From assembly GCF_003334385.1 (NCBI RefSeq), contig NZ_QOWN01000006.1: DNA of 64,000 nt. One strand, given 5' to 3'. The notes below the pieces were generated by a model that saw nothing but the letters and a program-made list of their open reading frames with translations, had not been told where the DNA came from and made no database searches. Each line of letters starts with the position of its first letter. The stretch's first letter is position 1. The stretch is from Escherichia coli. Lineage in GTDB: Bacteria > Pseudomonadota > Gammaproteobacteria > Enterobacterales > Enterobacteriaceae. This document shows, piece after piece, positions 7,113 to 8,291 of this stretch. The position numbers and the translations under genes are program-made.

Positions 7113-8240
7113 TTACTGCGGATATTCCTGCAATAAATTGTGTAATGCTTCCGCCATCAGCTCACCACGCCAGCCGGAAATCAGCTCCGGCAAATTGTTC
7201 TGCGGTTTCAGTTTCCAGTGCCAGTTCAGCAGTTGGTTGATTTGCCGACGCGATGCCAGCAATTCGGCGCTGATCTTATGCGTTTCGCTCACGTCAGTAA
7301 TCAGCGACTTAATCGCTTTAAACGCTTTACGATAACCCGGCATGTCCATCAGGTTAAGCATCGGCTGCGGTAAGGCATCTTCCGGCAATGTCTGCGCTTT
7401 TTCCACCAGCGCTAGCAGCGTTTTACCGTGAAAGCGGATTTCGCTACCGGATAAACCCAGGCTGTCCAGTTCGCCTAAACTTCCCGGCATATAACGCGCT
7501 ACCGACCACAAATGCTCTTCACGCACGACAAAGTTCACCGCCAGATCGCGCTCTCGCGCCTTGCGCAGTCGCCAGTCGGCTAACAGTTGCAGACAGGCCA
7601 GTTGGCGTGTGCGTAATTGCCAGGCATTGGTGATATCACGCCAGGCATCTTCCGGCGCAACGACTTCCTGACGACGCATTTGCATCAGGCGGCATTCATC
7701 CAGCGCCGCAGGTAGCCAGCCGGAGGCCTCCGTTTCTACCATAAGCTTGGCGGTGATCGGTAACAGATACCAGACATCCGCCGCTGCGTATTCACACTGA
7801 CGTTCGGTCAGCGGTCTGGCCAGCCAGTCGGTGCGCGATTCACTCTTGTCCAGCGTAACGCCGGAATACTCTTCCACCATGGAAGCGAAACCCCATGACA
7901 TCGGGCGTCCGCAGAAGGCAGCAAGGATTTGCGTGTCAATCAAGGGTTGTGGTAATTCGCCAAAGACATTGAGGAACACTTCCAGATCTTCACTGCCTGC
8001 ATGGAGAAATTTTGTGATGGACGGATCGCGCAGGATCGCTTTCAGCGGTGACCAGTCGGTGATCCCGAGTGGATCGATTAGCGCCAGATGCTCGCCATCG
8101 AAAAGTTGAATCAACCCCAGCTGCGGGTAATAAGTGCGCGTACGAACAAATTCAGTATCCAGGGCTATCGCCGGAAAGGCACGGACGGCTTCACACAAAG
8201 AAGCCAGCGCATCGTCCGTGGTAATCATTTGGTAATTCAA
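7113..8240 (-). CDS. rnd: ribonuclease D (DEDDy 3'-5' exoribonuclease + HRDC)
   Basis: Track ORF 375 aa MNYQMITT...; start codon at 8240-8238 is TTG. Confidence 0.9.
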   Translation of the reverse strand: MNYQMITTDDALASLCEAVRAFPAIALDTEFVRTRTYYPQLGLIQLFDGEHLALIDPLGITDWSPLKAILRDPSITKFLHAGSEDLEVFLNVFGELPQPLIDTQILAAFCGRPMSWGFASMVEEYSGVTLDKSESRTDWLARPLTERQCEYAAADVWYLLPITAKLMVETEASGWLPAALDECRLMQMRRQEVVAPEDAWRDITNAWQLRTRQLACLQLLADWRLRKARERDLAVNFVVREEHLWSVARYMPGSLGELDSLGLSGSEIRFHGKTLLALVEKAQTLPEDALPQPMLNLMDMPGYRKAFKAIKSLITDVSETHKISAELLASRRQINQLLNWHWKLKPQNNLPELISGWRGELMAEALHNLLQEYPQ

Positions 8241-8263
8241 ATTGTTTTCTCTTTAGTGGGCGT

Positions 8264-8291
8264 CAAAAAAAACGCCGGATTAACCGGCGTC
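8264..8291 (-). terminator. hairpin + U8 on minus strand: fadD terminator that also sits in the rnd leader
   Basis: ACGCCGG-TTAAT-CCGGCGT followed by T8 (minus strand), 19 nt after fadD stop and about 25 nt before the rnd UUG. Confidence 0.7.

Follow-up and report, generated by a model that had tools for sequence, protein, structure and literature searches.

A conserved intrinsic terminator between fadD and rnd of Escherichia coli probably also provides the SroD 3′ end and part of the UUG-initiated rnd leader

The fadD–rnd junction analysed here lies in a 64,000-nucleotide stretch of Escherichia coli DNA (hereafter, the window), in a region that corresponds to yeaX–rnd–fadD of MG1655 when the annotation of that strain is mapped onto the window (window position = MG1655 coordinate − 1879751). 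The junction features are all read on the minus strand (Table 1). A 401-nt probe spanning the junction matches 5426 of 5426 complete E. coli genomes. The fadD stop codon is followed by 19 nt (8309–8291) and then by the core of a stem in which ACGCCGG (8290–8284) and CCGGCGT (8278–8272) enclose a TTAAT loop and which A-U and G-U pairs extend to 8292/8270. The T-run comprises exactly eight residues (8272–8265) and is separated by 24 nt from the rnd TTG (8240–8238). After the T-run come GACGCCCAC, an in-frame TAA (8255–8253) and the sequence AGAGA (8252–8248), located 12 nt from the end of the U8, and then the TTG. The original prediction of a hairpin with eight U residues, about 25–50 nt upstream of the rnd start and 19 nt past the fadD stop, was correct in all its coordinates, the measured position being 25–52 nt upstream.

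Table 1. Features of the fadD–rnd junction, in window coordinates.
Feature	Position	Strand	Description and evidence
fadD CDS, 561 aa	8310..9995	-	Annotated TTG start 9995-9993, stop TGA 8312-8310; MG1655 annotation, sequence, ORF list
rnd CDS, RNase D, 375 aa	7113..8240	-	ORF list, curated MG1655 CDS, PDB 1YT3
rnd UUG initiation codon	8238..8240	-	ORF, curated annotation, 78-locus comparison, PDB, codon periodicity
GC-rich terminator hairpin	8270..8292	-	Core ACGCCGG, loop TTAAT, CCGGCGT; terminator scan, fold, covariation
U8 tract, terminator tail and published U-rich rnd translational enhancer	8265..8272	-	Sequence, 78 loci, literature (enhancer role as given in citing papers)
Mapped RNA 3′ ends at U7, U6 and U4	8266..8269	-	MG1655 1888017, 1888018, 1888020; Adams et al. 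2021 eLife, Term-seq supplementary files 1 and 3
SroD RNA, 86 nt	8266..8351	-	Last 13 fadD codons, stop and 3′UTR to U7; Rfam RF00370
5′ strand CGUC of proposed outer helix P0	8293..8296	-	Pairs with 8264-8261; covariation, MFE fold of 8298-8258
3′ strand GACG of proposed outer helix P0	8261..8264	-	Downstream of the U-run; covariation, MFE fold
Weak Shine-Dalgarno-like core AGAGA	8248..8252	-	Last G 8 nt from TTG; conservation
In-frame ATG, rnd codon 5	8226..8228	-	PGAP start; probably not the real start
Candidate rnd promoter -35 GTGACG (inferred)	8342..8347	-	Within fadD codons; frozen synonymous sites
Candidate rnd promoter -10 GACAAT (inferred)	8319..8324	-	17-bp spacer; predicted TSS about 8312-8310

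The junction hairpin comprises nine pairs in the terminator scan, six of them GC (7-bp core), with a 5-nt loop and the U8 directly 3′, and on its own it folds at −14.9 kcal/mol (z = −3.8 relative to shuffles). Using a strict definition of a terminator (a perfect stem of ≥7 bp, ≥5 of them GC pairs, a loop of 3–8 nt and no fewer than seven T within the next eight positions), we detected seven sites on the two strands of the 64-kb window, including the junction hairpin, as compared with 0.017 expected per simulated first-order Markov window; sites this strong are about 400-fold rarer in simulated sequence than in the window. A permissive scan performed about as it did on shuffles (4 versus 4.3 sites in 3.5 kb) and returned the junction hairpin as its top minus-strand match. 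A bidirectional terminator was rejected, as the homopolymer run precedes the hairpin when the plus strand is read. Pairing within the hairpin is retained in 99.4% of cells across 67 distinct leaders, with compensatory double changes from CG to UA in the Cedecea group and from GC to AU in the Kluyvera group.

Published Term-seq data (Adams et al. 2021 eLife) support the assignment of the hairpin and U8 as the fadD terminator, which had first been read from the sequence alone. The 3′ ends fall inside the U-run at window positions 8266, 8267 and 8269 (U7, U6 and U4), one per condition (LB OD 0.4, LB OD 2.0 and M63). They count as primary 3′ ends of fadD/sroD and, relative to rnd, as ‘upstream ORF’ ends at −27 to −29 nt (Adams et al. 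2021). The genes fadD, rnd and sroD have no entry in the Rho-termination supplementary file of the same study, a list from which absence does not amount to proof. The element resembles canonical intrinsic terminators in its GC-rich stem of 7–9 bp, its 5-nt loop, the U8 positioned 3′, the in vivo ends within the U tract and its location 19 nt past a stop codon. It differs from them in that it appears to sit within the 5′UTR of the next gene, 24 nt from the start codon, with its U tail reused in a ribosome-binding region.

The work of Zhang & Deutscher (J Biol Chem 1989; PNAS 1992) is cited in later papers for a U-rich enhancer of the UUG-initiated rnd mRNA and for U-rich elements that boost translation in general; as cited, it reportedly showed that translation and 30S binding drop, at an undiminished mRNA level, once the U tract is removed or shortened. 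One of these citing papers states, under a separate reference, that eight U residues just 5′ of a Shine-Dalgarno sequence enhance ribosome attachment and that shorter runs do not. In the synthetic constructs of the same paper, a terminator U8 adjoining a ribosome-binding site increased reporter activity from 31 to 100 MU (about 3-fold), with a smaller effect when it was moved 19 nt away (Wachsmuth et al. 2013). The later citations of Zhang & Deutscher 1992 and the synthetic U8 effect agree with the original prediction that the hairpin and U tract act as a translational enhancer of rnd. The accompanying proposal that one element is both terminator and enhancer is likewise in line with the Term-seq ends within the U-run for its first half and with the citing literature for its second. 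As far as the leader of Zhang & Deutscher is described in that literature, it coincides with the junction in both locus and element, with a UUG, a GC hairpin and eight U residues between promoter and Shine-Dalgarno sequence. We find no sequence difference; the present analysis adds a comparison of 78 loci, the outer helix P0 discussed below and the link to fadD termination and SroD. The rnd tract shares with S1-dependent A/U-rich enhancers (manY) and with the constructs of Wachsmuth et al. 2013 a U-rich single-stranded segment shortly 5′ of the Shine-Dalgarno sequence and a distance-dependent boost. Unlike these, it is the tail of a natural terminator and serves a UUG start whose Shine-Dalgarno sequence is very weak; a role of S1 at rnd may be proposed.

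We compared 78 loci from different enterobacterial species. A U-run of T5–T9 is present in 78/78 loci, as T8 or T6AT in nearly all of them, and ends 23–29 nt ahead of the start codon. Natural insertions in loci of the Citrobacter amalonaticus group put the fadD stop 54, 75 or >190 nt from the U-run, which still lies 24–25 nt from the rnd TTG. The hairpin is duplicated in two loci (L011 and L021), in which the fadD-proximal copy lacks a U-run and the rnd-proximal copy has a U8. More distant loci were reached via a 50%-identity representative library, the initial protein homology search having given close relatives only. In this distant set, the GC hairpin is present in two loci with fadD directly upstream (L083 and L085), missing from one in which a small ORF lies between fadD and rnd (L088) and absent from two that do not have fadD directly upstream (L084 and L086) and that keep a non-AUG start. 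Given that the U-run tracks the rnd start and that the hairpin is absent from L084 and L086, the comparison fits a division of labour in which the hairpin would serve mainly for termination and the U-richness would serve rnd. Since these two loci lack both the hairpin and an adjacent upstream fadD, the hairpin itself may be a fadD terminator only, with U-richness alone serving rnd. Zhang and Deutscher, in 1992, reportedly assigned the effect mainly to the U residues rather than to the hairpin.

The hairpin and U8 could instead be a plain fadD terminator that lies close to rnd as a result of tight packing, with a translational effect that is a mere side effect or peculiar to the plasmid constructs of 1989–1992. 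This reading accounts for the attribution of the Term-seq 3′ end to fadD/sroD and for the distribution of the hairpin in the distant loci, in which it occurs with fadD upstream and is missing without it or with a small ORF in between. We nevertheless consider it improbable since (i) the U-run keeps its 23–29 nt spacing from the rnd start in 78 loci, as opposed to 36 to >190 nt from the fadD stop, (ii) the two loci with a duplicated hairpin keep the U8 copy beside rnd, the fadD-proximal copy having lost its U-run, and (iii) the mutagenesis, as cited, and the independent synthetic U8 effect both point to a role in translation.

The end of the fadD coding sequence carries an additional signature in the same 78 loci. 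Within the last 13 fadD codons, CGT GAC GAA is invariant at its synonymous sites in 78/78 loci, and the hexamer 17 bp downstream always reads NANAAT (GACAAT in 69 loci, AACAAT in 7, GAGAAT in 1 and GAAAAT in 1). The Asn codon within this hexamer is always AAT and never AAC, and neighbouring codons vary freely. These frozen synonymous sites, with the NANAAT hexamer and the 17-bp spacer, suggest a probable rnd promoter in the terminal part of fadD (−35 GTGACG, −10 GACAAT), with a transcription start near the fadD stop. This position agrees with that of the reportedly mapped rnd promoter. At its threshold, the promoter scan detected no σ70 site in 8300–8400, the candidate matching 8/12 positions only; the SMRT-Cappable-seq supplements contain no entry for an rnd promoter and a full-text literature search on the fadD/rnd promoter found nothing. 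As these sites also fall within SroD, the constraint could act on that RNA rather than on a promoter.

SroD (Rfam RF00370; Vogel et al. 2003) is matched at 8351–8266 over its full length (model positions 1–86 of 86) with a score of 115.2 bits against a gathering threshold of 50 (E = 7.7e-24). The synteny with fadD and rnd is the same and the 3′ hairpin of the family is the junction terminator. The RNA begins with the final 42 nt of fadD, comprising 13 codons and the stop, continues into the 3′UTR and ends in the U-run, and the EcoCyc sroD 3′ end is identical to the Term-seq end at MG1655 1888017. The original prediction had mentioned SroD at this junction, which the full-length match bears out, and had held that it could not be separated from the terminator by sequence, which did not stand: SroD is an 86-nt RNA and only the final 26 nt of the model correspond to the terminator hairpin and its U residues.

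A table compiling five TSS datasets lists no start site at, within or upstream of sroD. Neither the promoter scan nor inspection revealed a credible σ70-like promoter or −10 element upstream of 8351, and a promoter belonging to SroD itself was rejected on these two grounds. The 5′ end falls inside fadD, between GAGAA and UUACG, an A/U-rich context that would be compatible with RNase E cleavage. We interpret SroD as most likely a terminator-protected 3′ fragment processed from the fadD mRNA, as a result of its Rfam extent, of the 3′ ends within the U-run and of the lack of a TSS or of a promoter before 8351. As its 5′ end at 8351 precedes the candidate rnd promoter, SroD would derive from fadD transcripts. 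It differs from the rnd leader in stopping within the U-run, short of the 3′ strand of P0, of the Shine-Dalgarno sequence and of the UUG, and is the terminated product rather than the leader. SroD shares with type II 3′UTR-derived sRNAs (e.g. CpxQ and SroC) the terminator of its parent, a 5′ end in the coding region and the absence of a detectable TSS; unlike for these RNAs, we found in the literature no RNase E dependence, no Hfq/ProQ binding and no target for SroD.

We also considered that SroD might be an independently transcribed trans-acting sRNA and that 8351–8266, with its GACAAT loop and terminator, is conserved for the sake of this RNA and not of rnd. The strong Rfam family match would suit such a molecule, as would the location of the frozen synonymous sites inside SroD, with the GACAAT hexamer in a predicted single-stranded loop. 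The absence of a sroD TSS in the five datasets and of a σ70-like promoter upstream of 8351 argues against it, however, as does a 5′ end set in an RNase E-like context within fadD. We found no target or phenotype for SroD in the literature, and the sole functional test that we found was negative for the phenotype studied, since a fadD-null strain was complemented with just the fadD ORF. An independent sRNA is thus quite unlikely, and we retain the processed fadD fragment as our interpretation.

The bases that follow the U-run (GACG in E. coli and GGCG in most genera) can pair with CGUC/CGCC just before the hairpin, forming an outer helix that we term P0. In the set of 67 distinct leaders, the paired fraction of P0 cells is 88.8%, versus 30–51% with slid partner columns, and three of the four pairs have changed on both sides; U-A in E. 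coli corresponds to U-G in E. albertii and to C-G elsewhere, with a change from C-G to U-A in Kluyvera. Folding with the 3′ strand of P0 present yields an MFE structure of −18.8 kcal/mol, in which a 13-bp stem carries a bulge of five U residues. P0 is absent from the distant loci L083 and L085. Because its 3′ strand lies beyond the termination point, P0 is predicted to be possible only in read-through (rnd) RNA. The covariation reflects few independent evolutionary events, and we treat P0 as a lead only. One could envision that in Enterobacteriaceae P0 (4–5 bp) makes the U tract a bulge presented to S1/30S or to another protein, the element meaning ‘stop’ during transcription and ‘load ribosome’ afterwards, a scenario that we regard as speculative and unlikely.

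If the rnd promoter lies inside fadD, the terminator falls within the rnd 5′UTR and read-through is required. The leader terminator might then be a regulated attenuator, at which a factor or an alternative structure switches read-through and couples RNase D to growth phase or fatty-acid metabolism. Its placement after the candidate promoter and ahead of the rnd start would be consistent with this idea, along with the abundant 3′ ends 27–29 nt before the rnd ORF and the conserved downstream GRCG, which extends the stem after read-through only. The GRCG pairing stabilises the hairpin, however, instead of disrupting it, and neither the MFE nor the centroid folds of the upstream region show a competing antiterminator, which led us to reject an alternative structure of this kind. 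Moreover, we saw no sign of control by a ligand, a protein or a uORF, an upstream AUG being in frame in 16/78 loci only, and attenuation appears very improbable. This AUG, located after the U-run (UUUUUUAUGGGCGC), was also rejected as an N-terminal extension of RNase D or a conserved uORF: it is in frame and open in those 16 loci, other loci have it blocked or in a different frame, and Escherichia and Citrobacter lack it.

The rnd TTG is the first ATG, GTG or TTG codon after the in-frame TAA and opens an ORF of 375 residues. The curated MG1655 rnd gene starts at this codon and PDB entry 1YT3 is the identical 375-aa protein. In the 78 enterobacterial loci, the homologous start codon is TTG in 74, GTG in 4 and ATG in none; in one of them (L081), an ATG is found one codon upstream of the TTG and the start may be this ATG. 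RNase D is said to have been subjected to N-terminal sequencing by Zhang and Deutscher in 1989. Among 57 distinct sequences, positions 4–12 (codon 2 onward) vary at third codon positions only, save for an Asn to Thr substitution at codon 2 in three Cedecea-group sequences. In the same set, positions −7 to −1 before the TTG vary at every position, and positions −12 to −8 (AGAGA) are invariant or nearly so. The six distant homologues (46–54% identity) have GTG or TTG at the homologous start and Leu or Phe at codon 5, with the exception of L087, which has ATG at the homologous position, and of L085, which is ambiguous. These non-AUG starts, in the 78 loci and in distant homologues, indicate that a weak start codon is an old and conserved property of rnd, as judged from sequence comparison. 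In an E. coli reporter, a UUG start gave 6–8-fold lower expression than AUG. The curated CDS, the PDB entry, the codon-periodic variation and the 78-locus comparison all support a start of rnd at the TTG, as had been predicted.

Automatic annotation has rnd begin at ATG 8228–8226 (371 aa), which would turn the TTG into an upstream in-frame codon; this start is used in PGAP-annotated genomes, agrees with the 371-aa length of the largest E. coli protein clusters and involves an ATG kept in 77/78 loci, but it is hardly credible and was rejected on comparative data since codons 2–4 vary at third positions only, the conserved AGAGA lies 8 nt before the TTG but 20 nt from the ATG, codon 5 reads ATT in L048, distant homologues have CTG or TTG codons and Leu or Phe residues there and GTG/TTG at the homologous start, and the curated CDS and the PDB entry both comprise 375 residues.

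We therefore favour a single intrinsic terminator between fadD and rnd with several jobs, namely termination, formation of the SroD 3′ end and enhancement within the rnd leader, and estimate the probability of this reading at about 0.85. According to this model, the hairpin (8292–8270) and the U8 (8272–8265) would end fadD transcripts and, together with the upstream 5′ end at 8351, would define the stable 86-nt SroD, with the end at 8351 most probably arising by processing of the fadD mRNA between GAGAA and UUACG. The rnd gene would be transcribed from a weak promoter within the last 13 fadD codons, at the position proposed above, and possibly also by read-through from fadD. As such a promoter is upstream of the terminator, and as the same holds for fadD read-through, every rnd mRNA would carry the hairpin and the U-run in its 5′UTR. 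In the read-through RNA, the U tract would be found 12 nt upstream of the weak AGAGA Shine-Dalgarno sequence, itself followed by the weak UUG, where it could act as an enhancer recruiting S1/30S; the enhancer effect is taken from the literature as cited, and the involvement of S1 is our proposal. The enhancer would partly offset the poor initiation signals, leaving RNase D low but not absent. The anatomy of the junction, its conservation and covariation and the UUG start come from the present analysis, and the 3′ ends within the U-run come from published data.

The element itself is already known, through the rnd leader (1988–1992), SroD (2003) and 3′-end maps (2021). Our additions are minor and consist of the P0 helix, the frozen synonymous sites fitting an rnd promoter in fadD and the placement of the PGAP start at codon 5. 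The practical consequences are small, and the analysis opens no new question, since the main findings appeared in print from 1988 to 2021. Automatic annotation puts the rnd start four codons off in most E. coli genomes. Deletions of fadD also take out SroD and the candidate rnd promoter and leader, and their phenotypes can be confounded. Terminator U-tails beside ribosome-binding sites can raise translation in engineered constructs.

The junction illustrates an economy of sequence, one 30-nt element ending a transcript, capping a stable sRNA and joining the ribosome-loading region of the next gene. The poor initiation signals of rnd would keep a tRNA-processing exonuclease scarce. Should the reading of P0 proposed above be true, the conserved weak start codon of gamma-proteobacterial rnd would be the reason why the enhancer is maintained.

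The terminator hairpin and U-run that end fadD within the rnd leader are enclosed by a proposed outer helix, P0, both sides of which have changed at three of its four pairs among the 67 distinct enterobacterial leaders compared, with pairing held in 88.8% of the cells of this comparison. P0 can form solely in read-through RNA and, once it has formed, the U tract becomes a bulge on a 13-bp stem.

In many genera, an AUG lies directly 3' of a U6 run (UUUUUUAUGGGCGC); in locus L024 and its relatives it occupies −27 to −25 relative to the start codon of rnd. This triplet is in frame with rnd and followed by an open frame in the Enterobacter group (16 of 78 loci), and is out of frame or blocked elsewhere. 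We interpret it as a probable by-product of the U-rich tract and the P0 strand.

The curated and PGAP annotations conflict on the rnd start itself (8226-8240, minus strand; locus L082): the curated K-12 entry and PDB 1YT3 begin at TTG 8240 (375 aa), whereas in E. coli genomes annotated by PGAP, and in the largest protein clusters, the start is at ATG 8228 (371 aa). The annotated start codon of fadD is likewise a TTG, so UUG serves both neighbouring genes.

Features in the fadD-rnd region and its surroundings
Feature	Position	Strand	Remarks
P0, 4-bp helix CGUC/GACG	8293-8296 + 8261-8264	minus	covariation; flanks terminator hairpin and U-run
Frozen synonymous sites, last 13 fadD codons	8319-8347	minus	78/78 species
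fadD start codon TTG (annotated)	9993-9995	minus	preceded by GAGGTG
Strong 11-bp hairpin	10153-10179		flanked by T/A runs; between fadD upstream region and slp-family gene
slp-family gene	10200-10781	minus	neighbour of fadD

The fadD-rnd spacer of Citrobacter amalonaticus-group genomes carries an insertion of ~150 nt (loci L011 and L021, and also L009 and L006); in the former two it covers roughly positions 2285-2440 of the locus, some 60-215 nt ahead of the start codon of rnd. Within the insertion are an extended inverted repeat (GAGGTGATC...GATCACCTC) and another hairpin, which is AT-rich. L011 and L021 carry the terminator stem-loop in duplicate, and the insertion therefore resembles a small mobile or repeat element placed between the hairpin and the U-run.

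Published Term-seq data place an ORF-internal RNA 3' end at MG1655 position 1887883 (8132 in the window, minus strand), 108 nt into rnd, listed in M63 medium only; we found no terminator-like structure at this position. The hairpin at 10153-10179 is probably the terminator of the slp-family gene.

At the end of fadD, CGT GAC GAA is unchanged, and the hexamer always reads NANAAT with a 17-bp spacer (78/78 species). This conservation fits a candidate rnd promoter embedded in fadD, but the same frozen sites fall within SroD, the 86-nt RNA from the fadD 3' end, whose predicted fold places the hexamer in a loop.
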